A DNA stretch of 64,000 nucleotides from an uncultured Verrucomicrobiae bacterium. GTDB taxonomy: Bacteria > Verrucomicrobiota > Verrucomicrobiia > Palsa-1439. The stretch lies in NCBI GenBank assembly GCA_963812605.1, contig CAWEWF010000014.1, forward strand, positions 736,001 to 800,000. The letters run 5' to 3'. How positions within the stretch are numbered: the first letter of the stretch is position 1; each line of letters begins with the position of its first letter. Below, one piece after another: positions 2,491 to 22,766 of the stretch. The notes beneath the pieces were generated by a model. It was not told where the DNA came from. It did no database searches and saw nothing but the letters and a program-made list of their open reading frames with translations. A program made the position numbers and the translations under genes.

Positions 2491-2726
2491 ATTTAGCTCG
2501 TGCTGATTTTGCGCCCTGCCAATTCTTGCACAGTGCGCACTTCCATGCCAGTCATAATCAGGCGCAAGAGCGGGGTTGGCATGGTACTGCACGACGTTCG
2601 GCTTCGGCAGCGGTGTTTCTGCAACCTGGGCGCAATGAGTCAAAAGGTCTTCCTTCGGCTATGCATTCTTGATAGATTGTTGTCTCGAAATCACTTTCAC
2701 CGTCAGAGCCAAAGGGCCGGTACCCA

Positions 2727-6479: not shown

Positions 6480-6487
6480 CTCGATCT

Positions 6488-7588: not shown

Positions 7589-7593
7589 ACCGC

Positions 7594-11178: not shown

Positions 11179-13257
11179 GCAAACTGCAAACGCTGCTGGT
11201 GTCGTTCGATGACAGAGCGTTTGAAGCGTTGGCGAGCCGTGGGCTGTTGCGACGCGCGCAGAAGGATTTGGAGGGCGGCGTTCCTGTCGAGATTACCGGC
11301 GATGTGCCCGCTGGTCTTGCGGTCAAGGTTGCCAATTTCACTGTTACACTTCCCGAAGCTGGTCCCGCGAAAGCCAAATGCACGTGTCGTTCCCCGGGCA
11401 TCTGTCAGCATATTCTGATGGCCTGCCTGTTTCTCCAACGCACCGCTGCACTCCCCAAGCAAGCTGACCTCCTGACAGTGGAAGCGACTACTACCGGACG
11501 CGGGCGCGATGAACTGTTGGCATTCACCGCCGAGCAACTCGGGCAATGGGCTAGCAAGCCGGCATTGCGGGCGGCGTTCGCATTGCTCGCGGCGCAACCA
11601 CCAATCCAGATGGAAACCAAAGGCGCGATCATTGTCCGTTTCCCTGATCACGGTGCGGAGTGCCGCTATGTTGCCGGTGGCGGATTGGATGGAATGGTTG
11701 TGACCGCACCGCAGGGTGCTTCCATGAAGTTTGCCGTGGCAGCGGTGTTGGCGTTTCAGCAGTCCCAGGGCCTCAAGCTACCCGAAGCCGCAACGGCGGC
11801 ACCTGCCCTGGCGGAAACCCGGGGCGCACCACGCACGCGAGATGAAGTCCTCGGTACCAGCCGTCAACTCCTTGAAGAGTCTGTGTGCGTCGGTCTTTCC
11901 CACCTCTCGATCTCATTTGAGCAGCGGTTTGCCACGCTGGCGGTTTCCGCGTTGGGAGTCAATCTTCCTCGATTGTCACTGGCGCTGCGCGGAATTGGCG
12001 ACGAGATTTCGCTGATCGTCAAGCGCGACGCGCAGGCTGATGAAGCGCGCCTGCTGCAATCAGTGTCACGCGCCCACGCACTTTGTCATGCTTTGCGTAC
12101 AACCATTCCCCCGCCACGAGCCGACTTGATCGGGTGGCATCGCACCCAATATGAGGAGGTCGGCCATTTGGAACTACACGGTGTCGCCGCCTACCCGTGG
12201 CGGACAAGTTCTGGTTACGAAGGATTAACGGTTCTATTTTGGGAGAACACAGCCTGCCCGGTGGTACTCGTGGTCGGAAGCCCGACCACGCCACCAAGCC
12301 GGCAGTTTCAATCCCCGCGACCGCTACAAACAAGAAAGTCCATGGCAGGGCGCGACCAGTCCTGACCAGCTTTCGCGCTCGAGCTTCAAGCTCATGCATG
12401 CGCGACGGAATCCCCTGGGCCGATTGTCTGCTTCTGCGAAGAGCCGAGCGTTGATCGTTGGCCCGACATCGCCCGTGACGCTCAACTTTGGCAATAAAAT
12501 CTTCTCGCACTGGAGTTCTCTCCAGCAGTACGCGTGCGAACTCTCGCCTATCGGTCTCGGGGAGTTCAATCCACTCGAGGAGATTGTGGTCTTGCAACCG
12601 GCAAACTGGGGCCGGCGACATTTCGATCAGGTTTCACAGACTTTCACCTGGGCCATCCTCGACGAAGACGGTGACGCGCTGACCCTGGAAGTGCGGTTTA
12701 ACGACCTGAACGACATCACCATCAAGTTTCTTGAGAATCTCAATCCCCGCACTCCGCGCGTGAGCGCGTTAATCGCCAAAATCTCGCGTACCGGCCTGAC
12801 AATCGCTGCGCAACCGATTTCGTTGGTCATGCCGGATGCGACGGGCACGGCGATTCTGAATCTTGGATTCGATGCCGCGCCCCGCCAGACGGTCCTGGCA
12901 AAGATAAAAGACCTGGTAAACACCATGGCTGACGAAGAGCCTCTGCTGGCTGATGAAGAGGGCGAGGCAGAGGAGTTCGTTCTTCTGGGTTCCAGCTTCG
13001 ATCAGCTCGTCACCAATCTGGAATCATTGCTTCAGAAGATCGCGGAACGCGGCTGCCGAACTCTTACTACGGTAGCCAGCCATGAACTGAGCGCGACCGC
13101 CGCAAACATGGAAGCCGCAGGGTTCAACATTCTTTCAAAAGCCATCCATCACTTGATCGGCAACACAAAGTGGCCAGCGCCGGATCTGCTCCAACTTCGC
13201 TACCTCTGCCTCGTTCATCGTCAGGCCGGTCAGCGAGTTGCTGCGCGCAGGACATGA
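11154..13257 (+). CDS. SWIM zinc-finger protein (YehQ-like), frameshifted near 12260
   Basis: CTCRSPGICQH SWIM motif; coding continues into ORF 12394-13257; start codon uncertain. Confidence 0.72.
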
Positions 13258-13373
13258 TTTGTCCATCGCATCTGACTGACAAACCAGATGCGGGTACAAG
13301 AAAAAAACTTTCTTGAATGTGTTGAGAAGGTAGAGGTTACACCGGTCTTTTCAATGTCGTGAACAAAAAGTTG

Positions 13374-13402
13374 TTGACGAATGACCCTTGGGAAGTTAGC
13401 TT
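13374..13402 (+). promoter_or_regulatory. Putative sigma70 promoter of the tRNA/RNA-repair locus
   Basis: TTGACG (13374-79), 17-nt spacer, TAGCTT (13397-402), A-tract upstream. Confidence 0.6.
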
Positions 13403-13424
13403 ACGCAAGTTTTTGAGGACAGAC

Positions 13425-13568
13425 ATGCGAACGCTAAGACCACAACGTAAATGCGCGACAGCGAGGATGCTTATATCCTCGTTGACCCGTAGTGGTCTGT
13501 TCCCGTCCTTTGTGTCATTAGGCCATTACGTCGCCAAAGATAACACGGGAGGGCCGGGAAGCAGGTAG
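13425..13568 (+). CDS. Putative 47-aa leader peptide (attenuator uORF)
   Basis: GAGGA Shine-Dalgarno at 13415-19; MRTLRPQRKC...GGPGSR*; last codons are complementary to the terminator 5' arm. Confidence 0.6.
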   Translation: MRTLRPQRKCATARMLISSLTRSGLFPSFVSLGHYVAKDNTGGPGSR

Positions 13569-13591
13569 TTGTCACGTCCAGATGTTCCGTG

Positions 13592-13624
13592 AACCCTGCT
13601 TCCGAAAGGAACGCAGGGTTTTTT
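13592..13624 (+). terminator. Intrinsic terminator (attenuator)
   Basis: AACCCTGC-TTCC-GAAA-GGAA-C-GCAGGGTT followed by a T tract. Confidence 0.85.
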
Positions 13625-13687
13625 ATTGTCGCTATGCCGAAAAACGAAAGGAATCACAGTTAAAATGAAGATTTAAGGTGAAAAGAA

Positions 13688-14049
13688 TGCCGCGCCACCA
13701 GCGTCAACTGGCAGCGCGGCGGGATCGGTCACTACAACAGGACTCTTGTGAGGGCCACTGAGGAGCAACCTTGTACAAGGTTAGCCTCCTTGGTGCGAAG
13801 GTGTCAAGGGCTCGCCCTTTGCCCGCCGAACTGTCCTGCCGGAGTTGAACGTTTCCCACACCAATCAATAACAACGCCAAGGGCTTCATGGGAGGTGTGC
13901 CCGAAACACCAAAACGTTCCACCGAGAAATCCCGTGGCCACGCCAGCGTCAGGCTGGTGTGAAGGTGTTCGTTCTTTGTTGTGATCAGGGCAGGAACACA
14001 GGGCAACCAATCGAGTGCCGCATGAGGCGGCATTGTGTTCCTGCCCCCA
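13688..14049 (+). ncRNA. Unassigned large structured RNA heading the tRNA array
   Basis: Nested helices: 13689-13720 hairpin; 13727-43 pairs with 13971-86; internal hairpins; terminal 13-bp stem followed by CCA; no convincing ORF. Confidence 0.6.
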
Positions 14050-14057
14050 TTTTCCGG

Positions 14058-14131
14058 GCGCTTGTGGTTTAGCAGCAGAACACCGCGTTGCCAACGCGGA
14101 GGTGCGGGTGCGACTCCCGCCGAGCGCTCCA
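14058..14131 (+). tRNA. tRNA-Gly(GCC)
   Basis: Cloverleaf, acceptor GCGCTTG/CGAGCGC, U73, CCA encoded, T loop TGCGACT. Confidence 0.88.
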
Positions 14132-14142
14132 ATTCCAGTGCT

Positions 14143-14216
14143 ACGGCGTGCGCCAGTTCGCGCAGTTGAGTCTCCAAAACTCGGCGTGGTTGGGGCGGCA
14201 CCAACACGCCGTGCCA
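14143..14216 (+). tRNA. tRNA-Trp(CCA), degenerate D arm
   Basis: Acceptor ACGGCGT/ACGCCGT, G73, anticodon loop CTCCAAA, T loop GGCGGCA, CCA. Confidence 0.75.
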
Positions 14217-14220
14217 GTTT

Positions 14221-14296
14221 GGGGACACATGTGCCGTAGCGGCGAGACTGCCTTGCAAGCAGTTTGTGGTGGGTGCAACTCCCACTGTCTCCACCA
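14221..14296 (+). tRNA. tRNA-Ala(TGC)
   Basis: GGGGACA/TGTCTCC with G3:U70, A73, anticodon loop CTTGCAA, CCA. Confidence 0.85.
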
Positions 14297-14308
14297 GTTC
14301 GGACCCGC

Positions 14309-14399
14309 GGGTGATGTTCCGGTCAACGGTCTGTAGAACCGTGGTCGCTAAAACAAGGTCGGAAGACGACGAGTGGAGCGTTACCACCATCACCCACCA
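14309..14399 (+). tRNA. tRNA-Tyr(GTA)-like, no D arm, enlarged variable arm
   Basis: GGGTGAT/ATCACCC, A73, CCA; anticodon arm ACGGT-CTGTAGA-ACCGT; T loop AGCGTTA. Confidence 0.7.
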
Positions 14400-14406
14400 G
14401 TTTCAC

Positions 14407-14482
14407 GACTCGGAAGAGGAACAGCAGACTCGCCTGCCTGTCTAGCGGGAGATAACGGGGGCAGCACCCGTCCGGATCGCCA
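14407..14482 (+). tRNA. tRNA-Asp(GTC)
   Basis: CCTGC-CTGTCTA-GCGGG, G73, T loop GGCAGCA, CCA. Confidence 0.8.
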
Positions 14483-14487
14483 TTTCG

Positions 14488-14562
14488 CGGGCACGAGGAA
14501 GATAGCAATCCGCCCGGTTTGGAACCGGGAGACACTCGGGGCAGAACCGAGGTGCCCGACCA
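14488..14562 (+). tRNA. tRNA-Pro(TGG)
   Basis: CGGGCAC/GTGCCCG, A73, CCCGG-TTTGGAA-CCGGG, CCA. Confidence 0.87.
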
Positions 14563-14569
14563 ATTTCCA

Positions 14570-14645
14570 CTCCCCGTAGTTCAGATTATAGAATGCCGAG
14601 CTTCTAACTCGGAGGTCGCAGGTGCGAGTCCTGCCGGGGAGACCA
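14570..14645 (+). tRNA. tRNA-Arg(TCT)
   Basis: CTCCCCG/CGGGGAG, CCGAG-CTTCTAA-CTCGG, CCA. Confidence 0.88.
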
Positions 14646-14653
14646 GTTTTGAT

Positions 14654-14728
14654 TCCATCGTGGGATAACAGTAGTCCACCGTCCTGTTAAGGCGAGAGGT
14701 CGTGGTGCGAATCCACGCGATGGAGCCA
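14654..14728 (+). tRNA. tRNA-Asn(GTT)
   Basis: TCCATCG/CGATGGA, G73, anticodon loop CTGTTAA, CCA. Confidence 0.87.
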
Positions 14729-14729
14729 G

Positions 14730-14821
14730 GGAGTCCAGGCCGATACAAGCTGGCGGCACTCGTCTTGAAAACGAGATCTGGCGCAAGCCAGAGGCGGGAG
14801 CATTACCTGCGGACTCCGCCA
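14730..14821 (+). tRNA. tRNA-Ser(TGA)
   Basis: GGAGTCC/GGACTCC, G73, long variable arm TCTGGC-GCAA-GCCAGA, CCA. Confidence 0.88.
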
Positions 14822-14853
14822 ATTCAGAAACAACAACCGAAGGAGATAAGGCC

Positions 14854-15033
14854 ATGTACACCACCAAGACAGAAACGGTCGCTCGGATCCCCATCCAACG
14901 CTGGCGAAATACGCGCTTTGTCGTACCGGTGCGGGAAACGCGACGCCATCGGTCGCTGGCAATACCGGATCCGCCACACCGGAAGAGGACGCGTCGCGGA
15001 TCATTCACCGAAACTGACGCGCGCGCCCCATAA
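14854..15033 (+). CDS. Small Arg-rich protein (59 aa) inside the tRNA array
   Basis: AAGGAG Shine-Dalgarno at 14840-45; MYTTKTETVARIPIQRWRNTRFVVPVRETRRHRSLAIPDPPHRKRTRRGSFTETDARAP*; too short for the ORF track. Confidence 0.5.
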   Translation: MYTTKTETVARIPIQRWRNTRFVVPVRETRRHRSLAIPDPPHRKRTRRGSFTETDARAP

Positions 15034-15075
15034 CGCGCATTGTTTACCATGCCTGTCGCAAACGATGCGCCCTTC

Positions 15076-15149
15076 CCTTCCGTAGCTCAAGAGCAGAGCG
15101 GTCGGCTGATAACCGACAGATCACGGAGCGTTACCGTGCGGAAGGACCA
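15076..15149 (+). tRNA. tRNA-Ile(GAT)
   Basis: CCTTCCG/CGGAAGG, GTCGG-CTGATAA-CCGAC, T loop AGCGTTA, CCA. Confidence 0.87.
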
Positions 15150-15151
15150 AC

Positions 15152-15226
15152 GGCTCGGAAGCTCTCGGAGGAGAGCGTCCCGCTGAAAACGGGAAAGGGG
15201 CGGTGCAACTCCGTCGCGAGCCACCA
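15152..15226 (+). tRNA. tRNA-Phe(GAA)
   Basis: TCCCG-CTGAAAA-CGGGA, A73, CCA. Confidence 0.86.
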
Positions 15227-15235
15227 CTTTGTTTT

Positions 15236-15309
15236 GTTCTCGAAGTGTAAGAGATCTGCACGTCCCGTTGCGAACGGGAAGGTTCGGGGTGCGAATCCCT
15301 GCGAGAACA
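15236..15309 (+). tRNA. tRNA-Arg(GCG)
   Basis: GTTCTCG/CGAGAAC, TCCCG-TTGCGAA-CGGGA; CCA not encoded. Confidence 0.83.
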
Positions 15310-15338
15310 CTTTACCCCGAATTCTTTCGGGCCAGTTT

Positions 15339-15415
15339 GCCTCTGTGGCCGAGACTGTCCAGGCACGGCTTTCGTAAAGCCGACCACATCGGTGCAATTC
15401 CGATCGGAGGCCCCA
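15339..15415 (+). tRNA. tRNA-Thr(CGT)
   Basis: GCCTCTG/CGGAGGC, CGGCT-TTCGTAA-AGCCG, CCA. Confidence 0.85.
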
Positions 15416-15422
15416 GTTTGCT

Positions 15423-15497
15423 GGTGACCGTGGTGTAAGAGCAGCACCGCAGACCGTGAATCTGCAGGAGCGGGTGTAAGTCCCGTCGGTCGCCCCA
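15423..15497 (+). tRNA. tRNA-His(GTG)
   Basis: G-1:C73 pair, GCAGA-CCGTGAA-TCTGC, CCA. Confidence 0.87.
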
Positions 15498-15505
15498 ATT
15501 CGTTC

Positions 15506-15578
15506 GTCCCGCGAGGGAGCCAGTGAACCCGCCTGTCTGCAAAACAAGCACTGTGCGGTGCGACACCGCAGCGGGACT
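15506..15578 (+). tRNA. tRNA-Cys(GCA)
   Basis: GTCCCGC/GCGGGAC, U73, anticodon loop CTGCAAA; followed by TCA. Confidence 0.8.
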
Positions 15579-15588
15579 TCAATTTCAT

Positions 15589-15663
15589 GCCTCCAAAGAA
15601 TAGACAGCGATTCGCGTCATCGGTAATGACGACAGCACAGTGCGATTCTGTGTGGAGGCTCCA
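15589..15663 (+). tRNA. tRNA-Thr(GGT)
   Basis: GCCTCCA/TGGAGGC, CGTCA-TCGGTAA-TGACG, CCA. Confidence 0.85.
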
Positions 15664-15670
15664 ATTCGAT

Positions 15671-15749
15671 GCGGCAGTGATGTTGAACAGAATGAGCATG
15701 GCTGCCTTCCAAGCAGCTCGTGTGGGTGCGACTCCCATCTGCCGCACCA
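15671..15749 (+). tRNA. tRNA-Gly(TCC)
   Basis: GCGGCAG/CTGCCGC, GCTGC-CTTCCAA-GCAGC, CCA. Confidence 0.86.
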
Positions 15750-15755
15750 CTTCGA

Positions 15756-15829
15756 CGCGGGTGAGTAGCGTGGCACTACAGGAGGCTCATACCCTCCAGA
15801 CGCCGGTTCAATTCCGGCACCCGCTACCA
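15756..15829 (+). tRNA. Initiator-like tRNA-Met(CAT)
   Basis: C1/U72 mismatch, GGAGG-CTCATAC-CCTCC; the only array tRNA with a canonical TTC T loop, paired with a GG D loop. Confidence 0.82.
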
Positions 15830-15836
15830 ATTTTCT

Positions 15837-15911
15837 CGCTCCGTAGCACAAACGCAGTGCGCCGGTTTCATACGCCGGAGATTGCCAGTGCGAACCTGGC
15901 CGGAGCGACCA
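15837..15911 (+). tRNA. Elongator tRNA with CAT anticodon (Met; Ile2 not excluded)
   Basis: CGCTCCG/CGGAGCG, CCGGT-TTCATAC-GCCGG, CCA. Confidence 0.8.
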
Positions 15912-15915
15912 GTTC

Positions 15916-15990
15916 GGGTCGCAAGCATTGCAAGCGATGCAGCGGATTCTTACTCCGCAGAACACGGGGCGGTACCGTGGCGGCCCACCA
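15916..15990 (+). tRNA. tRNA-Lys(CTT)
   Basis: GGGTCGC/GCGGCCC, GCGGA-TTCTTAC-TCCGC, T loop GGCGGTA, CCA. Confidence 0.84.
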
Positions 15991-15998
15991 ATCCATTC

Positions 15999-16073
15999 GC
16001 CTGCGTGGCCGAAAAGTCAGGCACCGGTTTTGTAAACCGACCCATGCAGGTGCGACTCCTGCCGCAGGCTCCA
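15999..16073 (+). tRNA. tRNA-Thr(TGT)
   Basis: GCCTGCG/CGCAGGC, anticodon loop TTTGTAA, CCA. Confidence 0.86.
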
Positions 16074-16079
16074 ATTGAT

Positions 16080-16154
16080 TGCCTCGTGGTGTAACCAGCG
16101 GCACATCCGTCTCTGAAACGGAAAGTCCGGGTGCAATTCCAGGCGAGGCAGCCA
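16080..16154 (+). tRNA. tRNA-Gln(CTG)
   Basis: U1:A72, G73, TCCGT-CTCTGAA-ACGGA, CCA. Confidence 0.87.
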
Positions 16155-16161
16155 TCGTCAC

Positions 16162-16236
16162 GCCGCACTAGCCCAATGCAGAGGCACCAGTCTTAGAAAC
16201 TGGACAGTCCTGGTGCAAATCCAGGGTGCGGTACCA
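16162..16236 (+). tRNA. tRNA-Leu(TAG), short variable loop
   Basis: CCAGT-CTTAGAA-ACTGG, 5-nt variable loop, A73, CCA. Confidence 0.85.
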
Positions 16237-16240
16237 ATTC

Positions 16241-16316
16241 GCTCCCGTAGCTCAAAGTATAGAGCGCCCGGCTTCGAACCGGGAGGTTGCAGGTGAGATT
16301 CCTCCCGGGAGCACCA
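16241..16316 (+). tRNA. tRNA-Arg(TCG)
   Basis: GCTCCCG/CGGGAGC, CCCGG-CTTCGAA-CCGGG, T loop TGAGATT, CCA. Confidence 0.86.
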
Positions 16317-16325
16317 ACGTCCGAA

Positions 16326-16397
16326 GCTCGTGTAGCCCAACGCAGAGGCAGTCGGCTTAAACCCGATCCAGTGCCGGTGCAATCCCGGCCACGAGCA
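16326..16397 (+). tRNA. tRNA-Leu(TAA), short variable loop
   Basis: GCTCGTG/CACGAGC, GTCGG-CTTAAAC-CCGAT; followed by CCG. Confidence 0.84.
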
Positions 16398-16402
16398 CCG
16401 AT

Positions 16403-16478
16403 ACCGACGTAGCCCAACAGCAGAGGCACCAAGCTCAAACCTTGGCCAGTGTGGGTGCGACTCCCTCCGTCGGTACCA
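16403..16478 (+). tRNA. tRNA-Leu(CAA), short variable loop
   Basis: ACCGACG/CGTCGGT, CCAAG-CTCAAAC-CTTGG, CCA. Confidence 0.85.
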
Positions 16479-16484
16479 ATTCAC

Positions 16485-16577
16485 GGAGCATGAACCGGGC
16501 AAGCGAACCGGGACTGTTTGCTAAACAGATCGACCCGCATCCAGCGGATTGAGGCGCAAGCCCTCCGTGCTCCGCCA
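16485..16577 (+). tRNA. tRNA-Ser(GCT)
   Basis: GGAGCAT/GTGCTCC, G73, anticodon loop TTGCTAA, long variable arm, CCA. Confidence 0.82.
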
Positions 16578-16587
16578 GTTCCTTCTC

Positions 16588-16676
16588 CCGCCCGTAGTTC
16601 AAAGAGAACCGTCCGCCTTATAAGCGGAATCGCACTGGATGAGTGCCAGGCCTCGGAGCGTTACCGAGCGGGCGGA
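16588..16676 (+). tRNA. tRNA with TAT anticodon (Ile UAU) and a long variable arm
   Basis: CCGCCCG/CGGGCGG, TCCGC-CTTATAA-GCGGA, variable arm GCACT-GGATG-AGTGC; no CCA. Confidence 0.8.
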
Positions 16677-16677
16677 T

Positions 16678-16755
16678 GGCCGTGATCGCGAAGCAGCTCC
16701 AGCGACCTGTCTTTCAAGCAGGATCCAGCGGGTGCGAGACCCGCCACGGCTGCCA
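16678..16755 (+). tRNA. tRNA-Glu(TTC)
   Basis: GGCCGTG/CACGGCT, G73, CCTGT-CTTTCAA-GCAGG, CCA. Confidence 0.85.
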
Positions 16756-16757
16756 AC

Positions 16758-16834
16758 GGACTCGAAGCCACAGCAGACCGGCACCGGACTTTTAATCCGG
16801 CAGGGTGAGGTTGCAACTACCTCCGGGTCCACCA
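16758..16834 (+). tRNA. tRNA-Lys(TTT)
   Basis: GGACTCG/CGGGTCC, CCGGA-CTTTTAA-TCCGG, CCA. Confidence 0.86.
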
Positions 16835-16860
16835 ATTTCGCTCGTATTGCCCAATGCGTT

Positions 16861-16934
16861 TGCCGAGTCGTCCAATAGTAGGACATCTCGCTTTGAACGA
16901 GAAGATCGTGGTGCGAATCCACGCTCGGCAGCCA
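16861..16934 (+). tRNA. tRNA-Gln(TTG)
   Basis: TGCCGAG/CTCGGCA, G73, TCTCG-CTTTGAA-CGAGA, CCA. Confidence 0.88.
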
Positions 16935-16939
16935 ATTCC

Positions 16940-17013
16940 CGCCCGATGGTGAAATAGGATCACGCCTGGCTTACATCCAGGAATCCGGGGAGCATAACCT
17001 CGTCGGGCGACCA
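16940..17013 (+). tRNA. tRNA-Val(TAC)
   Basis: CGCCCGA/TCGGGCG, CCTGG-CTTACAT-CCAGG, T loop AGCATAA, CCA. Confidence 0.86.
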
Positions 17014-17023
17014 GTTTGATGAT

Positions 17024-17109
17024 TTGCGGAAGTGAGACGGGAGTTCCTTCGGAGCTCAATCACCGAGCACTGGCCTGTTAAGCCAGCCTCCCGGCAGGAT
17101 ACTCCGCAA
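17024..17109 (+). ncRNA. Y RNA-like gene 1 (D arm plus GTT anticodon arm module)
   Basis: Ends pair (TTGCGGA/TCCGCAA); shares the AGTGAG..GGAGTT.CTTC scaffold; lies upstream of TROVE. Confidence 0.7.
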
Positions 17110-17123
17110 TGCTCTTTCGGCGA

Positions 17124-17255
17124 TTTGAGGTAGTGAGATCGGAGTTACTTCGCATGACAAGCGAGAGGTTGCCGGTTCGATTCCGGTCGCGGCCAGCAAT
17201 GGCTGCGTAGCTCAATGGTAGAGCGCTTACGTCTCTGATCGATTTTCTCCTCAAA
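17124..17255 (+). ncRNA. Y RNA-like gene 2 (YrlA-type permuted tRNA-like domain)
   Basis: Scaffold stem plus T arm GCCGG-TTCGATT-CCGGT, loop-closed acceptor CGCGGCCA-GCAA-TGGCTGCG, D arm GCTC-AATGGTA-GAGC. Confidence 0.82.
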
Positions 17256-17258
17256 ACT

Positions 17259-17358
17259 TTTTGGGGTAGTGAGATTCGGGTTACTTCATGGTCCTGTTGG
17301 TTCGAATCCAACCTTCAGCCTTCCGGCTGATGTTCCCGGGTCGGTTTACTCCTCAAAA
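17259..17358 (+). ncRNA. Y RNA-like gene 3 (T arm plus acceptor-like hairpin)
   Basis: Same scaffold; GTTGG-TTCGAAT-CCAAC, then TCAGCC-TTCC-GGCTGA. Confidence 0.75.
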
Positions 17359-17380
17359 CAATCCAAACACAACCAAATCC

Positions 17381-17477
17381 GTGAGGCAGTGAGGTCAGGG
17401 CTACTTCGAAACTGGGATGGGTGAAAACCCCACCAGTCTGGCCGCAAGGCCGTTTCCCCGGCCGGTTTACTCCTCAC
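17381..17477 (+). ncRNA. Y RNA-like gene 4 (two-hairpin module)
   Basis: Same scaffold GTGAGG-CAGTGAGGTCAGGG-CTACTTC...CCCCGGCC-GGTTTACT-CCTCAC; ends 21 nt before the TROVE start codon. Confidence 0.7.
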
Positions 17478-17498
17478 ACAACCTGAAAGGAGCACGCA

Positions 17499-18931
17499 AT
17501 GAGATTCAACCTGCTCAAGAGACGCCGCACGGGCGCCGATACCGTCAACTTCGCTGGAGGCGAGGCGTTCACGGAATCCCCAAAGCTGGAACTGGCGGCG
17601 CTAATGTTGACCGCGACACTGCAGAACGACTTTTATCGTTCCGCCAACGCCACTGCTACGCGCTTGAAGGAACTCATCGGCAAGATCGACGACAAGAAGT
17701 TTGTCGCCAAGACTGCGCTCTACGCCCGCAACAAGGCGGGGATGCGTTCGGTTTCACATCTGACTGCCGGTGAGTTGGCCCGCACCGTGAAGGGGCAGCC
17801 GTGGACTGCGAAGTTCTACGAACAAGTGGTCCGCCGCCCGGATGACGCGTTGGAAATCCTCGCGTACTACCTGGCGATGCACGGTCGGCCCATCCCAAAC
17901 GCGTTGAAGAAGGGCCTGGGCGCTGCCTTGGCGCGTTTCGACGAGTACCAGTTGGCCAAGTATCGCAAGAGCGCTGCGGAAATCTCGCTCGTGGACGCGG
18001 TAAACCTCGTTCACCCGAGACACACCGAGGCATTGAAGAAGCTGGTCAACGGCACTCTCGCGCCGGCAGAAACCTGGGAAACCAGACTGACGGAGGCGGG
18101 TGCGGCGGCGGAGTCGGAAGACGAACTCGCCGAGTTGAAGAAGGACGTGTGGACGAAGCTGATCGAGAGTCGCAAGCTCGGTTACTTCGCGCTGTTGCGC
18201 AACCTGCGCAACATTCTCCAAGCCGCGCCTGAGTCAATGGATGCGGCCATCACAATGTTGACGGATGAGAGGCTCATCCGGCGCTCGTTGGTGCTGCCAT
18301 TCCGTTATCCTCACGGCGCTCGAAGCAATGCAGGCGACTAAGCCTGCCGAATGTCAGCAAGGTACTCGTTGCTCTCAGCGAGGCGGTGGACAAGTCTCTT
18401 GTTAACGTGCCGCAGTTCGATGGCAAGACGCTGGTTGCGCTGGATGGCTCTGGTTCGATGCAGGGGCGTCCCCTGAAGATCGGCTCGCTGTTTGCCGCAA
18501 CGCTGGCGAAGGCCAACGATGCGGACGTAATGCTGTTCAGTAACGACGCGAAGTATGTCTCCCTGAACCACCGTGACAGCACGTTGACGCTGGCGCAGTG
18601 GCTGGAGAGCCAGGCCCAGTCGGCGGGAACCGACTTCCATTGCATCTTCCAGACGGCGAAGCGCGGTTATGATCGCGTGATCATCCTGTCGGATATGCAG
18701 GGTTGGATCGGTCACTACGCTCCGACCAAGACCTATGAGGCGTACAGGAGACAGTTCGGGGTTGACCCGAAGGTTTTCTCGTTCGATCTCAAGGGTTACG
18801 GCACGTTGATGTTCCCCGAACGCAGCATCTATTGTTTGGCCGGCTTCTCCGACAAGACAATGGACATGCTGAAGTTCCTCGACTCGGATAAGTCCGCATT
18901 GCTTCGAGAAATCGAGGCCGTCGAGTTGTAA
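17499..18931 (+). CDS. rsr: Ro60/Rsr TROVE-domain RNA-binding protein with C-terminal VWA; two apparent 1-nt insertions near 18309 and 18340
   Basis: VNFAGGEAF, YARNKAGMRS, FDEYQLAKY, ETWET, YFALLRNLRN, LPFRY, DGSGSM, GTDF, IILSDMQ. Confidence 0.88.
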
Positions 18932-18935
18932 CCTC

Positions 18936-18978
18936 GGGAGCTTCCTGACCACGGTTGGGAAGCTCCCTTCTCTTTCCA
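18936..18978 (+). terminator. Hairpin or possible terminator after TROVE
   Basis: GGGAGCTTCC...GGAAGCTCCC followed by TTCTCTTT. Confidence 0.55.
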
Positions 18979-19063
18979 GTAATTTGAAGCATCCGGCAAC
19001 GACAACCGAGCTGCGTCGTCTGTCATTACACAAATCAACCCGCTCGGAGAAAGGAGCCACATC

Positions 19064-19307
19064 GTGAGATTCAACATCCTGAAGAGACGCAGCACGAACG
19101 CCGATTCCGTCAACTTTGCCGGCGGGGAGGCATTTACCGAGTCGCCAAAGGTGGAACTGGCGGCGCTGATGTTGGGCGCAGGCAACCAGCTTGGTCTTGG
19201 GCAACCACCATTGACATTGGTTGCGTTTTCACTAATCCGCAATCGCGAAGTTCCTCGACTCGGACAAGACGGCGCTGCTGCGAGAAATCGAAGCGGTGGA
19301 GTTGTAA
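19064..19307 (+). pseudogene. Internally deleted second TROVE copy
   Basis: MRFNILKRRSTNADSVNFAGGEAFTESPKVELAALML matches the TROVE N-terminus; 19248-19307 encodes KFLDSDKTALLREIEAVEL*, matching its C-terminus. Confidence 0.85.
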
Positions 19308-19380
19308 ACAAACCCGGTGGAGGAGTAGCTTGAAGGCGTGCTCCTCCATCCCATTGAATGATAGGAAAGGAAACACCAAC

Positions 19381-20550
19381 ATGAAGCCAGTAATCTTCGG
19401 TCAGCATGACGAGGCGACGATCCGGCAGATCGAAACCTGCCTGGCGGCGGGCGGCGAAAAGGCCGTGCTGTGCGCGGATGGCCACAAGGGCTACGCCCAA
19501 CCAATCGGCGGCGTGGTCGCCTACAAGGACAAGGTGTCGATCTCGGGTGTCGGTTTCGACATCGCCTGCGGCAACCTTGCCATCCGCACCGACGCCATGG
19601 AAGCCGACATCCAGCCAAAGATGGACGCGATCATGGACGACGTGGTGCGCCACATCTCGTTCGGCGTCGGCCGCACGAACAAGAACAGGGTTGACCATGA
19701 ACTGTTCGACGACGAAGCGTGGAACATTCGCGCGATTGGCCAACTGAAGCACCTGGCGCAGGAGCAGCTCGGCACGGTCGGCAGCGGCAACCATTATGTG
19801 GATGTCTTTGCCGATGAGGGTGGCGTGGTCTGGGTCGGCGTGCACTTCGGTTCGCGCGGGCTCGGTCACCGGTCGGCGACGCACTTCCTGAAGGTTGCGG
19901 GTGGAAAGGACGGCATGGATGTACCACCTACCGTTCTCGATCTGCGGGTTCAGGTCGGTCAGGATTACCTCGCGGCGATGAGGCTGGGCGGTCGTTACGC
20001 CTACGCCGGCCGCGAGTACGTCGCCCGTTTCGTCGTGCGTGAGATTCTCCAGGCGAACATCGTGGAAGAAGTTCACAACCACCACAACTTCGCCTGGGAA
20101 GAAGAACACTACGGCGAAAAGTTCTGGGTCGTGCGCAAGGGCGCTACGCCGGCGTTTCCCGGTCAAAAGGGATTCGTCGGCGGCAGCATGGGCGACGACG
20201 CCGTAATCATCGAGGGCATTGACACGGCAAGATCGCGCGAGGCCTTGTTCTCGACCGTCCACGGCGCTGGACGCGTCATGTCGCGCACGGCAGCCAAGGG
20301 CAAGTTCGAGAACGTCGGCGGAAAGCGTATCCGCCAACCCGGGCGAATCCGTCATGATGAAATGATGGCCTGGCTCAAGAACAAGGGCGTCGTCCTGCGA
20401 GGTGGCGACCTTGACGAAGCGCCCCAGGCCTATCGTCGCCTGACGGATGTACTCGCGGCACAGGGTCGCACGATTCGCGTTCTCCATACGCTCCGCCCGC
20501 TGGGCGTGGCCATGGCCGGACGAAACATCGTCGATCCCTACAAGGACTGA
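19381..20550 (+). CDS. rtcB: RtcB RNA ligase
   Basis: ADGHKGY, GFDIACG, GTVGSGNHY, HFGSRGLG, HNHHNFAW, VVRKGATPA, GGSMG, STVHGAGR, DEAPQAY. Confidence 0.95.
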   Translation: MKPVIFGQHDEATIRQIETCLAAGGEKAVLCADGHKGYAQPIGGVVAYKDKVSISGVGFDIACGNLAIRTDAMEADIQPKMDAIMDDVVRHISFGVGRTNKNRVDHELFDDEAWNIRAIGQLKHLAQEQLGTVGSGNHYVDVFADEGGVVWVGVHFGSRGLGHRSATHFLKVAGGKDGMDVPPTVLDLRVQVGQDYLAAMRLGGRYAYAGREYVARFVVREILQANIVEEVHNHHNFAWEEEHYGEKFWVVRKGATPAFPGQKGFVGGSMGDDAVIIEGIDTARSREALFSTVHGAGRVMSRTAAKGKFENVGGKRIRQPGRIRHDEMMAWLKNKGVVLRGGDLDEAPQAYRRLTDVLAAQGRTIRVLHTLRPLGVAMAGRNIVDPYKD

Positions 20551-20617
20551 AGGCAAGCTGCCCGCGGTTGGAGCGATGTCAGCCACATCCTGTGCATTGT
20601 TCCAACCTCCCCTTTTC

Positions 20618-20692
20618 GCTCCCATAGCTCAACAGACAGAGCCTTCCTCTCCTAAGGGAAAGATTTGGGTGCAACTCCTGATGGGAGCACCA
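20618..20692 (+). tRNA. tRNA-Arg(CCT), array type (T loop TGCAACT)
   Basis: GCTCCCA/TGGGAGC, TTCCT-CTCCTAA-GGGAA, CCA. Confidence 0.86.
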
Positions 20693-20746
20693 TTTATTTG
20701 GCGATCACAACAAATAGCGAACACCATCGAGGAACAGAGGAATGAT

Positions 20747-21334
20747 ATGAACGACATACTAAATAAAGCGACGGTATTGGTACTGAATCGCAACTGGCAG
20801 GCCATCAACGTGCGCACGCCGGCAGAAGCGTTTTGCCAGATGGCAATCAACGCGGCAACCGGCTTGGACATCGAGGGCGAGGATCGCATGGGTCCCGTCC
20901 CGTGGGATGGGTGGCTCAAGCTGCCGATTCGGCCCCACGATAACGCCGTCGGCACACCACGCGGACGTATTCGTGTGCCCACGGTCATCGTGTGCGCGAA
21001 CTACGCGTGGGTGCCCCAGAAGCGACCGAAGCTCTCCGCGCGGAACATCCGCGAGCGCGACGGTCACCGCTGCCAATACACCGGCAAAGTATTGCGCGCG
21101 GAAGAGGGCAGCATTGACCACGTCCTTCCCCGCTCACGCGGCGGGAAGACGACATGGGAGAACTGTGTCTTCGCCAGCAAGCAGATCAATACAAAGAAAG
21201 GCAATCGACTGCCCCAGGAAGCTGGGCTGCAACTCTTGGCGCGTCCCCGAGTACCGCGGGCGCTGCCGGTGACCCTGACCATTCGCAATGCCCACGGTAT
21301 TCGAGACTGGAAGCCCTTTCTGGGTGATTCATGA
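20747..21334 (+). CDS. HNH endonuclease (McrA-like)
   Basis: VLVLNRNWQA, RDGHRCQYTG, SIDHVLPRSRGGKTTWENCV...NTKKGNRLP. Confidence 0.9.
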   Translation: MNDILNKATVLVLNRNWQAINVRTPAEAFCQMAINAATGLDIEGEDRMGPVPWDGWLKLPIRPHDNAVGTPRGRIRVPTVIVCANYAWVPQKRPKLSARNIRERDGHRCQYTGKVLRAEEGSIDHVLPRSRGGKTTWENCVFASKQINTKKGNRLPQEAGLQLLARPRVPRALPVTLTIRNAHGIRDWKPFLGDS

Positions 21335-22645
21335 CGCCGGGAATTTCTTCGGAGGCTGCTCGTGGAGTTTGCCGAGCCTGCGAATCCCGGGCCACATCCA
21401 GGCGGTCAGTGCCACCACAACAATCGTTCCGACCCCGCCACTGACTACCGAGGCCACCGGGCCGAAGAAACGGGCGACGGTGCCGGACTCGAACTCGCCC
21501 AATTCGTTGGAGGCGCTGATGAAAACGCTGTTGACCGCGGAAACACGGCCGCGCATTTCATTGGGCGTGCGCAACTGTACCAGGCTGTGCCGCACCACGA
21601 CGCTGATGTTGTCCGCTGCTCCGCACGCAGCCAACATCAGGAGCGACAACCAGAATGATGAAGAAAGGCCGAACACGATGGTCACAATACCGAACACCAA
21701 CACTGCCAGCAGTAGCGCCCGACCAGCCTGACGCAGTGGCGGCAAATGCGATAGTGTGACAGCCATGCAGATTGCTCCGACGGCCGGCGCCGCGCGCAGC
21801 CAGCCCAAACCGGTCGGCCCCACGCGCAGAATGTCCTTGGCGTAAATGGGTAACAACGCCGTAGCGCCTCCCAATAGGACCGCGAAGAGATCCAGGGTAA
21901 TGGCGGCCAGAATGAGTCCGTCATTGAGCACGTACCGGAACCCCGCCAAAACTGTTTTGAGCGAAGCAGTCTCCGTCAATTGCGTTACGGGACGGGCGGT
22001 GATCGCCGCCACGCAACAGCAATTCACCAGGGCCATGCCCGCGTCCACGAGATAGACCCCCATGGTCGCCTTTTGCAGACCAATCATAAACCCACCCAAT
22101 GCTGGTCCCAAAACGGAAGCGAGTTGATAGCTGGTGCTCCTCCAGGTAACGGCGCTGCTAAAGACATCGTTCGGCACCAACTGGGGGAGCAACGCTTGGC
22201 TGGCCGGCCAAAAGAAAGCCCGGCCCATCGCGCCGAGCAGCAGCATCGCATACATCCATCCGATGGGGCCGCGCGCATGAGAGGTAATCGCCAAACCCAG
22301 TGAGGCCATGGCCATCACCAGCACGCCAACCAGCACGATCCATCGTCGATCCAGGCGATCGGCTAACTGGCCGGACGGGAGGGCCAAAAGTATAATCGGC
22401 AGGGCCTGGACCAGGCCAACCCACGCAAGGGCCATTGCCGAACCGGTACGCTCATAGAGTTCCCAACCGACCGCGACAGACTGCATATTGCTGCCGATGC
22501 TGATTGCCAGATTCCCGAAAAGGTAAAGGCGATACTCGCGCAATCGCAAGGGCGCATAGGGATCGTGGGGTTTCTGCTTGCCCGCCACCGATGTCTCGGG
22601 TAGCGGAGTCTCAAACAATTCCTCCGGATCGGGAACTTCATCCAT
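21329..22645 (-). CDS. MFS transporter (MFS_3/EntS-like)
   Basis: About 12 hydrophobic segments, GQLADRLDRR, LDLFAVLLGG, MRGRVSAVNSVFI. Confidence 0.88.
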   Translation of the reverse strand: MDEVPDPEELFETPLPETSVAGKQKPHDPYAPLRLREYRLYLFGNLAISIGSNMQSVAVGWELYERTGSAMALAWVGLVQALPIILLALPSGQLADRLDRRWIVLVGVLVMAMASLGLAITSHARGPIGWMYAMLLLGAMGRAFFWPASQALLPQLVPNDVFSSAVTWRSTSYQLASVLGPALGGFMIGLQKATMGVYLVDAGMALVNCCCVAAITARPVTQLTETASLKTVLAGFRYVLNDGLILAAITLDLFAVLLGGATALLPIYAKDILRVGPTGLGWLRAAPAVGAICMAVTLSHLPPLRQAGRALLLAVLVFGIVTIVFGLSSSFWLSLLMLAACGAADNISVVVRHSLVQLRTPNEMRGRVSAVNSVFISASNELGEFESGTVARFFGPVASVVSGGVGTIVVVALTAWMWPGIRRLGKLHEQPPKKFPAS

Positions 22646-22766
22646 GCAACGAAGTCTTTACCATTTACTCTGGCAAGCGGCAAACTGTTGAGATGGAATC
22701 CTGGCGGTGAAGGCAACGCACGAGTAGTCGCCTTTCGGAATGCGCAATGAGGCCGACCCAGCGACT

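Follow-up and report, generated by a model that had tools for sequence, protein, structure and literature searches.

A transferable cassette of 32 atypical spare tRNA genes behind a likely ribosome-sensing switch in a soil bacterium, with optional and partly broken RNA-repair genes

Organisation of the locus

The DNA analysed here is a 64,000-nucleotide stretch (the window; positions 736,001 to 800,000 of contig CAWEWF010000014.1, assembly GCA_963812605.1) from a soil Chthoniobacterales bacterium. Positions 13374-21334 form one co-oriented block on the + strand, consisting of a small leader ORF with a terminator, a structured leader RNA, 32 tandem tRNA genes covering all 20 amino acids, four Y-RNA-like units, rsr, rtcB, a 33rd tRNA gene and an HNH gene. 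The first-pass annotation had listed these parts together with a promoter, and its observation is confirmed, the promoter being the weak point. Loci used for comparison are labelled L followed by a number.

The promoter-like site (13374-13402) has a −35 TTGACG at 13374-13379, a 17-nt spacer and a weak −10 TAGCTT. TTGACG is conserved at the same place in the homologous leaders of L002, L029 and L034 and in the congeners, but a consensus scan did not call the promoter, which is inferred. The leader ORF (13425-13568) has 47 codons plus TAG and is preceded by a GAGGA Shine-Dalgarno sequence. It is followed by an intrinsic terminator at 13594-13626, in which the hairpin CCCTGCTTCC-GAAA-GGAACGCAGGG (13594-13618) precedes a T-run. 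The fold energy of the hairpin is −20.1 kcal/mol, and it is conserved in relatives.

The structured leader RNA (13640-14045) comprises a lineage-specific part (13640-13845), a widespread core at about 13846-13990, which includes GGAGGTGTGCCCGAAACACC at 13891-13910, and a closing hairpin at 13985-14045. This RNA is 75% identical to that of L002 over about 400 nt and had no match in Rfam. Two alignments of the family showed compensatory changes in two of three helices, P2 and P3.

The array of 32 tRNA genes (14058-17013) was resolved by combining several methods. ARAGORN found 17 tRNAs in the array plus the separate one at default settings, and 26 plus one at a 90% threshold, while Rfam found 18 at gathering score. 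A covariance model built from array tRNAs gave 29 class-I hits in 14058-17013, plus the one at 20618, at E<=0.0014, but it should be noted that 19 of these 30 hits were training sequences. Three long-arm tRNAs bring the total to 32. Of these, Ser(tga) was identified by ARAGORN, Ser(gct) at 16485-16577 is 78% identical over 93 nt to a Ser(gct) in L098, and Tyr at 14309-14399 rests on a manually drawn cloverleaf only. An insertion inside the array (14826-15072) carries a 59-codon ORF (14855-15034) with a ribosome-binding site. It is absent at this place from L002 and from congeners, and the ORF gave no Pfam hit. The host has a separate canonical set of 47 dispersed tRNAs.

Four Y-RNA-like units lie at 17022-17112, 17116-17256, 17260-17366 and 17380-17482. 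One of them matches Rfam YrlA (17125-17257) at 40.6 bits, below the gathering score of 69 (E=1e-7), and the other three share its terminal stem with 32 invariant columns. Their tRNA-like parts keep a canonical GGTTCGA T-loop. The adjacent rsr gene, a Ro60 homolog (17499-18931), is broken by two +1 frameshifts near 18310 and 18334-18339, leaving TROVE (17499-18341) and the Ro60 vWA domain (18386-18931) on two separate reading frames. L002 has one intact frame, and a 93%-alike soil contig lacks the extra bases. A terminator-like hairpin follows at 18936-18975. At 19064-19333 lies the remnant of a second rsr copy, in which the N-terminal ~40 codons and the C-terminal ~20 codons remain and the middle is deleted (tblastn match of 83% over 29 residues). 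Its 3′ end and the following hairpin match the rsr-rtcB junction of L002.

The rtcB gene (19381-20550) encodes a 389-aa protein of the RNA 3′-phosphate ligase family (Pfam RtcB, E=2.5e-62) and is the only copy in the genome. It is followed by tRNA-Arg(cct) at 20618-20692 and by the HNH endonuclease gene at 20747-21334 (195 aa; Pfam HNH_5, HNH_4 and HNH). A longer ORF starting at 20447 runs through the tRNA and is an artefact. The HNH protein shows sub-threshold similarity to the Cas9 and IscB HNH domains.

The leader ORF and terminator

The last ~10 nt of the leader ORF, GGGAAGCAGG plus TAG (13556-13568), are complementary to the 5′ arm of the terminator and would form the antiterminator strand. 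ORF, complementarity and terminator are present in 5 of 5 verrucomicrobial arrays, and covariation is seen in the window, L002, L029, L034 and L060. Among 100 loci with at least 450 nt upstream, homologous ORFs of 39-66 codons end 23-38 nt before the terminator in 55, and in 42 of these 55 the tail is the best partner of the 5′ arm among all 17-nt windows of the ORF. The remaining 45 of 100 loci gave no ORF-plus-terminator by our detection procedure. Among 13 relatives the frame stays open and indels come in threes, but no constraint was seen at the amino acid level. The many rare codons of the leader (CAI 0.40, 0.16th percentile) are matched by the two other frames, and are thus not evidence for a rare-codon sensor.

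In folds of the nascent RNA the antiterminator is the minimum-energy structure when the tail is free, whereas in full-length equilibrium folds the terminator always wins, so that the switch must be kinetic. No conserved anti-antiterminator was found, and upstream pairing of the tail is no better than in shuffled sequences. The same leader and terminator precede a 637-640-aa MsbA-like ABC exporter in 4 of the 4 congener loci fetched, while 6 of 17 congeners gave leader-only matches.

The leader RNA, the long-range arms and the tRNA elbow

The core of the leader RNA occurs on at least 120 metagenome contigs, and 73 of 96 contigs with at least 600 nt downstream have 2 or more tRNAs within 3 kb. 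On about 20 metagenome contigs the core sits next to a large serine recombinase with two ParB/RepB genes.

A stretch of the leader RNA at 13961-13986, containing the boxA-like GGTGTTCGTTCTTTG, is complementary over 26 nt (88%) to 20703-20728, 19 nt upstream of the HNH start codon, and the two arms enclose the whole RNA block. The same pairing is found in L029, L034, L224, L002 and L060. It was found in 6 of 6 verrucomicrobial-type loci examined. A strict 18-mer test found it in 11 of 35 loci, against 0 of 35 for two controls. The complementary stretch extends into lineage-specific flanks.

The 33 tRNAs of the block have a remodelled elbow, with G at T-loop position 55 in 32 of 33, against 1 of 42 housekeeping tRNAs, and GG in the D-loop in 8 of 33. 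tRNA-Arg(cct) is of the same G55 type. This feature is shared by arrays carrying the leader RNA. In 58 metagenome arrays with the core, 406 G against 56 T were counted, and 1 G against 134 T in 5 arrays without it. An encoded CCA end is present in 29 of 33 tRNAs, and Leu tRNAs lack the long arm. Compensatory stem changes between the window and L002 tRNA-Trp are indicative of selection on the tRNAs. G3:U70 is kept in tRNA-Ala of 6 other arrays, including three of G55 type (L029, L034 and L060), but the tRNA-Ala of the window has A3:U70.

Distribution and linkage

Homology with three congeners starts at 13366-13411 and ends at 21323, with unrelated flanks, and the congener labelled G406 lacks window positions 2492-21344. 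The core was found in 1 of 401 sampled genomes of the phylum, the window's own. The three congeners, of 17, carry the same cassette without Y RNAs, rsr or rtcB, but keep a ~25-nt stub of the first Y RNA, so the module was deleted there. Arrays are carried by 9 of 80 RtcB loci, with rtcB beside or inside the array, and 8 of those 9 have the HNH homolog in or beside the array. L002 and L114 have the same order of parts with an intact rsr. Among the 124 oriented loci bearing the core motif, only L002, L114 and L095 showed Rsr by tblastn. No RtcR or RtcA family hit was obtained in the ~90%-complete genome.

Discussion

The block is a long accessory tRNA array of a type already described, and its association with HNH and rtcB is already in print for cyanobacteria (PMC8421152). 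Four features appear to be undescribed, namely the putative attenuator made of leader ORF and terminator, the leader-RNA family absent from Rfam, the long-range complementarity enclosing the RNA block and the remodelled tRNA elbow.

The cyanobacterial L-type arrays likewise have more than 20 tandem tRNA genes duplicating the housekeeping set, a patchy and horizontally spread distribution, HNH and rtcB as neighbours and a proposed role under translational stress, and both the array and rtcB are induced by translation inhibitors (PMC8421152). There, however, control is by a repressor, TrcR, acting on direct repeats in the promoter (PMC10272220), whereas here a putative leader-ORF and terminator attenuator is present. 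The conserved leader RNA, the long-range arms, the G55 elbow and the Rsr/Y-RNA cargo are not mentioned, and the terms Ro60 and Y RNA do not occur in PMC8421152. tRNA array units of Mycobacterium plasmids and phages and of Acidithiobacillus elements (PMC5966550, PMC4758250) are also arrays on mobile DNA with an embedded HNH endonuclease, and the HNH described here is homologous to that inside the 29-tRNA array of the Mycolicibacterium plasmid pCBMA213_1 (L230). The arrays without the leader-RNA core whose T-loops were scored (L042, L043, L046, L071 and L080) have canonical T-loops, and the only pCBMA213_1 tRNA scored, tRNA-Ala, reads GGTTCGA. No rtcB, Ro60 or inverted repeats are mentioned in the passages searched.

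As in the rsr-yrlBA-rtcBA RNA repair operon of Salmonella (PMC7790460; Chen et al. 2014, PMC4201824), Rsr, YrlA-like tRNA-mimicking Y RNAs and RtcB lie side by side, with more than one Y RNA encoded next to rsr. Here RtcR and RtcA were not found, rsr is broken and the module is embedded in a tRNA array. Chen et al. discarded hits that overlapped tandem tRNA genes, so loci like this one may have been filtered out. The leader resembles ribosome-dependent attenuators, such as trp-type leaders and the antibiotic-sensing bmrB-bmrCD leader (PMC4191407), in having a short translated ORF, an intrinsic terminator and an alternative pairing competing for the terminator's 5′ arm, and a homologous leader also precedes an ABC exporter. 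It differs in that no run of regulatory codons, no conserved arrest motif and no supported region-1 anti-antiterminator were identified, and in that the controlled genes are tRNAs. rRNA operon leaders carry boxA and long-range processing stems that bracket 16S and 23S. The cassette shares with them a long untranslated RNA operon, a leader hairpin followed by a GUUCUUU block (the host rrn leader has GCGTTCTTTGAAAA) and leader-to-trailer complementarity enclosing the RNA genes. However, only the 7-9-nt core matches boxA, such 9-mers occur 78 times in the genome, the enclosed block also holds protein genes in some loci, and Nus-factor binding and RNase III cleavage could be proposed by analogy only.

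The first-pass annotation interpreted the locus as uniting backup tRNAs, RtcB repair and Ro/Y-RNA surveillance under a ribosome-sensing switch, without an RtcR-type activator, and this interpretation is only partly supported. The complete, atypical, co-oriented spare tRNA set, a leader that fits a ribosome-sensing switch, the absence of RtcR hits and the recurrent linkage of array, rtcB and HNH agree with it. That all arms are co-selected and work together as one integrated rescue operon is suggested by their co-orientation within one pair of complementary arms, the same order in L002 and L114 and the published co-induction of an L-array and rtcB (PMC8421152), but appears unlikely given the two frameshifts in rsr, the gutted second copy, the loss of Y RNAs, rsr and rtcB in three congeners that keep array and HNH, the rarity of Rsr among arrays with the leader RNA and the terminator-like hairpin after rsr.

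Alternatively, the block could be a selfish mobile cassette, with the inverted repeats as DNA-level ends or recognition sites, HNH as a homing or mobilising nuclease and the tRNAs as passengers whose expression matters little. Patchy distribution, differing flanks in congeners, the serine recombinases next to the core on about 20 metagenome contigs, signs of decay in the rsr copies and tRNA-Ala, and the report that HNH is the commonest CDS in arrays (PMC5966550) are in line with this view. It remains doubtful, though slightly less so than the other alternatives, since the 5′ arm lies inside the conserved unit, promoter, leader and RNA core sit outside the arms yet always travel with them, HNH lies outside the arms, P2 and P3 covary as RNA helices, tRNA stems keep compensatory changes and anticodon order is conserved across loci. 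One may also speculate that the tRNAs are decoys or sponges for tRNA-targeting toxins or nucleases, with RtcB mending what is cut, an idea raised in PMC8421152. One gene for nearly every anticodon class with conserved anticodons, an elbow that may keep these tRNAs off the ribosome or modification enzymes, and a tRNA-Ala lacking the AlaRS determinant in this genus would fit, whereas G3:U70 in the tRNA-Ala of the 6 other arrays, the retained CCA ends and discriminator bases and the lack of any toxin gene seen in the block make it improbable. Equally unlikely is that the small ORF is an independent gene with its own terminator and that leader RNA and array form a separate unit without attenuation. 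The strong terminator directly after the ORF, its formation in all equilibrium folds and the failure to find an anti-antiterminator speak for this, but covarying tail-to-arm complementarity is unexplained by a plain terminator, the peptide is not conserved as a protein and the same module is reused upstream of an ABC exporter with no other promoter-like gap.

The hypothesis we favour, with moderate confidence, is that the block is a horizontally moving accessory tRNA cassette, a long L-type tRNA array, whose recurring unit runs from the promoter (about 13366) to the HNH stop (21334). The tail-to-arm pairing, by covariation, and the long-range complementarity are what the analysis shows of the mechanism, whereas transcription start, termination, read-through, induction and the steps below are inferred from sequence alone. 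Transcription would start at 13374-13402 and the 47-codon leader would be translated. Ribosomes running to the stop codon would cover the ORF tail, the terminator would fold and the cassette would stay off. When ribosomes stall, are slow or are scarce, possibly owing to ribosome-targeting antibiotics or damaged or uncharged tRNA, the free tail would pair with the terminator's 5′ arm and RNA polymerase would read on. With no anti-antiterminator found, the off state without translation is unexplained by this scheme, and the logic could be simpler or reversed. In the read-through transcript the 3′ block of the structured leader RNA would pair with the site 6.7 kb downstream, just before HNH, enclosing the untranslated RNA block much as rRNA-operon processing stems do, presumably for processing, protection or coupling of HNH expression, although the inverted repeat could act at the DNA level.

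In this view rtcB and the rsr/Y-RNA module are optional cargo placed inside the enclosed block. In this genome rtcB looks intact, but both rsr copies are broken and the Ro arm is probably not working. The A3:U70 pair in tRNA-Ala, the Leu tRNAs without long arm and the 4 of 33 tRNAs without CCA make the use of at least some members in translation doubtful. The 32+1 tRNAs with their remodelled elbow, G55 and loss of G18G19 in most, would nevertheless constitute a second, stress-induced tRNA pool beside the canonical set of the host.

The tRNA genes of the array

All parts listed in the first-pass annotation are present on the + strand between 13374 and 21334, and its observation therefore holds. 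The genome carrying the window (C14:736001-800000; 4.17 Mb, 15 contigs, ~90% complete) has its closest RtcB relatives in MAGs of Verrucomicrobiota/Chthoniobacterales. The array comprises 32 tRNA genes in 2,956 nt, all in one orientation, and is redundant with a host set of 47 dispersed tRNAs on 11 contigs that have canonical T- and D-loops. Its density, orientation and redundancy, together with a patchy distribution consistent with horizontal transfer, are those of an L-type tRNA gene array.

The number of tRNAs recovered depends on the method. ARAGORN at default settings found 17 in the array plus 1, Rfam at gathering score found 18, and ARAGORN at a 90% threshold found 26 plus 1. A covariance model built from 36 array tRNAs, 19 of them from the window, gave 30 hits at E<=0.0014, of which 29 are in the array and eleven, including Thr-ggt, Lys-ttt, Pro and Asp, were not in the training set. 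Three long-arm tRNAs complete the total of 32: Ser-tga was called by ARAGORN, Ser-gct is 78% identical over 93 nt to a Ser-gct in another locus (L098), and Tyr, the weakest call, rests on a hand-drawn cloverleaf with a very short D region. Four of six hand-called tRNAs were not found by ARAGORN even at 55%; three of these (Asp, Pro and Lys-ttt) are supported by the covariance model and Ser-gct by homology, whereas Tyr was reported by ARAGORN only at the 65% threshold, and then as tRNA-Thr(cgt). All 20 amino acids are represented.

The tRNAs are SYSTEMATICALLY odd. Of the 33 tRNAs in the block, 32 have G at the second T-loop position (position 55), as compared to 1 of 42 housekeeping tRNAs, and only 8 of 33 have any GG in the D-loop region, as compared to 42 of 42. 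The one canonical T-loop belongs to Met1, 29 of 33 encode CCA, and the three Leu tRNAs are 75-76 nt long without a long variable arm. The G55 trait defines a lineage. In 58 metagenome arrays that carry the leader-RNA core described below, each with 5 or more tRNAs, 406 of 470 CCA-ending tRNAs carry G55 against 56 with T, and 53 of the 58 loci have a G majority. Five arrays without the core (Propylenella, Terriglobia, Bryobacterales, Acidobacteria) showed 1 G against 134 T. Such arrays of 23-37 canonical (U55) tRNAs with rtcB embedded, and mostly an HNH, occur in Alphaproteobacteria and Acidobacteriota (loci L042 and L043 of Propylenella, L046, L071 and L080), and the linkage of rtcB with arrays is therefore wider than the G55 lineage.

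The genes are under selection as RNAs, since tRNA-Trp of the window and of L002, a related array locus, differ by compensatory changes in the anticodon and T stems. Anticodon order is partly conserved between loci. Some members nevertheless look degenerate. tRNA-Ala(tgc) has A3:U70 instead of the AlaRS determinant G3:U70 in this genus, both in the window (14223-14296) and in the array of congener G403 (L224 1695-1768), whereas six other arrays keep G3:U70. tRNA-Ile(tat) at 16588-16676 is 89 nt long, with an extra arm or insert and no CCA end; a UAU anticodon for AUA is unusual in bacteria. A similar Ile(tat) of 91-92 nt occurs in L029 and L071. A 247-nt insertion inside the array (14826-15072) carries a 59-codon basic ORF with a ribosome-binding site and a terminator-like hairpin (15021-15038); it is absent from L002 and from congeners, and the ORF gave no Pfam hit.

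The leader ORF and terminator

A 47-codon ORF (13425-13568), preceded by a GAGGA Shine-Dalgarno sequence, ends 25 nt before an intrinsic terminator (13594-13626). A consensus promoter and terminator scan called neither the putative promoter nor this terminator. The last 10 nt of the ORF (GGGAAGCAGG) are complementary to the 5′ arm of the terminator (CCTGCTTCC), a pairing that overlaps the ORF and would compete with the terminator. In the related array loci L002, L029, L034 and L060 the ORF (39-45 codons), the stop position, the terminator and this complementarity are all kept while both partners change in step, as in GAGGCAGG with CCTGCCTC and GCCGGGCGGG with CCTGCCCGGC. Among 100 loci with at least 450 nt upstream of the RNA core, near-duplicates included, an ORF plus terminator was detected in 55, and in 42 of those 55 the tail is a better partner for the arm than any other 17-nt window of the ORF. 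Many leader ORFs outside the verrucomicrobial group (e.g. in metagenome loci L097, L120 and L135) lack a Shine-Dalgarno sequence and have instead a conserved ACNTTCAA..CC just before the ATG, so they may be leaderless or use non-SD initiation.

Folding of the window leader showed that, with the tail free, the nascent RNA up to 13612 forms the antiterminator, whereas with the ORF plus 12 nt masked only the terminator forms. In full-length folds the terminator always wins, so any switch must be kinetic. A trp-like region-1 anti-antiterminator was not supported, since in 49 leaders the upstream pairing of the tail was no better than in shuffled sequences and the position of the partner was not conserved. 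Constraint at the amino acid level was rejected because substitutions are spread evenly over the three codon positions (763, 669 and 685). The codon adaptation index of the leader is very low, but it is just as low in the other two frames and was thus rejected as evidence of a rare-codon sensor. What is conserved is the openness of the frame, indels in threes and the position of the stop.

The module is portable. Nine of 17 other genomes of the genus match it, three over the full length with the array and six over the leader and terminator only. In all four of those six that were retrieved (L225-L228, from congeners G420, G412, G406 and G417) the leader precedes a 637-640-aa MsbA-like ABC exporter, which has no ortholog in the window's genome. 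The G420 leader also shares the first hairpin of the array's leader RNA up to the ribosome-binding site of the exporter, which suggests that the control regions of array and exporter were exchanged by recombination near window 13745. By contrast, this leader was found upstream of stand-alone rtcB genes in 0 of 39 loci.

The leader RNA and the long-range arms

The stretch 13591-13983 is 75% identical to L002, and a core around GGAGGTGTGCCYGAAACACC, ending in GGTGTTYGTTCTTT, is invariant in five loci. A search of Rfam 15 at E<=5 gave no non-tRNA hit over 13640-14045 apart from a chance-level ctRNA match (E=1) on the opposite strand, and none in 6 further members. The 20-nt core occurs in 1 of 401 sampled genomes of the phylum, the window's own, but on at least 120 metagenome contigs. 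Of 96 contigs with at least 600 nt downstream, 73 have two or more tRNAs within 3 kb. About 20 others, among them L083, L084, L086, L094, L129, L168 and L188, place the core between a DUF6431 gene and a large serine recombinase followed by two ParB/RepB genes, with no tRNA array, and the RNA, or its DNA, may have a role in a second kind of mobile element. RNAalifold on 40 diverse members gave three hairpins, of which P1 is invariant and so uninformative, P2 has 6 double changes and P3 has many. An alternative long-range pairing inside the core, P1b (AACACCG with CGGTGTT), was dropped since it is not kept in the recombinase-type members.

The 3′ block is one arm of a long inverted repeat. In the window, 13961-13986 pairs with 20703-20728 (26 nt, 88%). 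The corresponding arms are 5618-5640 and 9944-9966 in L029 (96%), 4076-4094 and 9959-9977 in L034 (100%), 1435-1454 and 5439-5458 in G403 (L224; 95%), 4042-4064 and 11232-11254 in L002 (96%), and 7499-7528 and 12858-12887 in L060 (87%). The arms extend into lineage-specific flanks, and L034 changes both arms in step (GTTCG to GTTTG on one arm, CGAAC to CAAAC on the other). A strict 18-mer test found the partner in 11 of 35 loci with at least 2.5 kb downstream, against 0 of 35 for both the reversed and the complemented controls; this is an undercount, since the test misses L029. The 3′ arm always lies 20-45 nt before the first protein gene after the RNA block, which is HNH in the window, L002, L060 and G403, and rtcB in L029 and L034. 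A 1-mismatch copy of the arm sequence GGTGTTTGTTCTTTG lies at C10:176889-176903 of genome G000.

We read the arms as an RNA-level stem enclosing the untranslated block, as in rRNA operons, although a DNA-level role as ends or nuclease sites is not excluded. The host rrn leader has a hairpin followed by GCGTTCTTTGAAAA, with which the GTTCTTT core of the array leader was compared. Only a 7-9-nt boxA core is shared, however, and such 9-mers occur 78 times in the genome, so the boxA reading is kept as a resemblance only.

Y-like RNAs, rsr, rtcB and HNH

Four Y-like units share the stem 5′-UG.GG.AGUGAG...CUUC / UC.C.G...ACUCC.CA-3′. The second unit matches YrlA over the full model length (40.6 bits, E=1e-7), although below the gathering score of 69, and L002 has such a match too; the three further units are linked only by the shared stem. 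The rsr gene is split across two frames, so that an intact Ro60 ortholog with TROVE and vWA in one frame is not found. As compared to the intact L002 gene the reading frame moves twice, after ...LPFRY and after ...EAMQAT, and a 93%-alike soil contig lacks one base at 18310 and a net one base at 18334-18339. The soil contigs are short and low in depth and none at least 99% alike covers the site, so an assembly error is not excluded. A second rsr copy keeps only its two ends (19064-19333) and carries the same rsr-to-rtcB junction hairpin as L002.

The rtcB gene (PF01139, E=2.5e-62) is the only copy in the genome. Profile searches for RtcR (PF06956) and RtcA (PF01137) gave 0 hits in this 90% complete genome, whereas the positive controls did give hits. 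The longest ORF over HNH (20447-21334, 295 aa) runs through tRNA-Arg(cct) and the 3′ arm, and the real start is the ATG at 20747, which has a GAGGAA ribosome-binding site. A second HNH paralog (40% identity) lies away from any array in genome G000 (C6:57452-58024), and the Acaryochloris HNH homolog has no array within 8 kb.

In congeners G410, G421 and G403 the array runs straight into the 3′ arm and HNH, and the segment corresponding to window 17048-20705 is missing. G403 keeps about 25 nt of the 5′ strand of the first Y RNA, and the Y/rsr/rtcB module was therefore deleted there rather than gained here.

Distribution and mobility

The cassette is present in 4 of 18 genomes of the genus, counting the window's own. 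Homology with G410, G421 and G403 spans 13366/13411 to 21323 and nothing else within 12000-23000, in agreement with the limits set in the first-pass annotation, and the flanks differ between genomes. Congener G406 has the MFS gene next to tRNA-Leu(taa) and lacks the whole 18.85-kb segment between them (window 2492-21344). Besides the cassette, this segment holds a DUF4132 / MoxR-AAA / DUF5682 / VWA(CoxE) / SWIM cluster, which is also accessory and was not found in 5 congeners.

Discussion

The locus is real and rich. Its kind, an accessory L-array with HNH and rtcB, is known, whereas its regulatory and structural features appear to be new. L-arrays have been described in several phyla including Verrucomicrobia, with an upstream HNH gene, rtcB in the neighbourhood and induction by translation inhibitors through promoter repeats (PMC8421152), and HNH is reported as the commonest CDS in arrays (PMC5966550). 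YrlA has been reported next to rsr in a study that discarded hits over tandem tRNA genes (PMC4201824). In the open-access literature, supplements excluded, searches on tRNA arrays in connection with RtcB, Rsr/Y RNA, leader peptides and attenuation, the G55/U55 and G18G19 positions, and DUF6431 found no description of the attenuator, the leader RNA, the arms, the G55 elbow or the Rsr/Y cargo, although Figure 6 and the supplements of PMC8421152 and Table S1 of PMC4201824 may list neighbours or Y-RNA loci that bear on novelty.

The interpretation in the first-pass annotation, a single translation-rescue super-operon, is only partly supported, since its unity is weakened by the decay and loss of the Ro arm. 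All functional steps are inferred from sequence alone in the absence of RNA data: induction of the array by translational stress, read-through dependent on leader translation, and, for the putative rrn-like stem, NusB/NusE binding and RNase III cleavage. A leader shared by a spare tRNA set and an exporter is what one would expect of a sensor of impaired translation, but that step too is inference.

One may speculate further, although we consider this reading unlikely on present evidence, that the locus is one member of a widespread, undescribed class of bacterial tRNA arrays. In this class every tRNA would carry a remodelled elbow (G55, no G18G19), and the whole set would be switched on by a ribosome-sensing leader-peptide attenuator and enclosed by an rRNA-operon-like long-range stem formed with a new structured leader RNA. 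In this view the cassette would supply a parallel tRNA pool that is invisible to factors reading the canonical elbow, such as modification enzymes, nucleases or toxins, and would be deployed when normal translation fails.

Accessory tRNA arrays are common, but their regulation and purpose are known for only one cyanobacterium. As default ARAGORN found 17 of the 32 array tRNAs and Rfam found 18, such arrays are under-annotated. This locus and its relatives offer a concrete, mutable candidate cis-acting switch (leader ORF, tail and terminator) amenable to reporters, a new conserved RNA family found on many soil, peat and freshwater contigs, and an architecture that, as inferred here, treats a tRNA array like an rRNA operon. 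They also provide evidence that Ro/Y-RNA and RtcB modules can be cargo of tRNA cassettes and are readily lost, and a natural full set of tRNAs with a non-canonical elbow, which bears on how far the D-loop/T-loop interaction is required for processing, charging and decoding.
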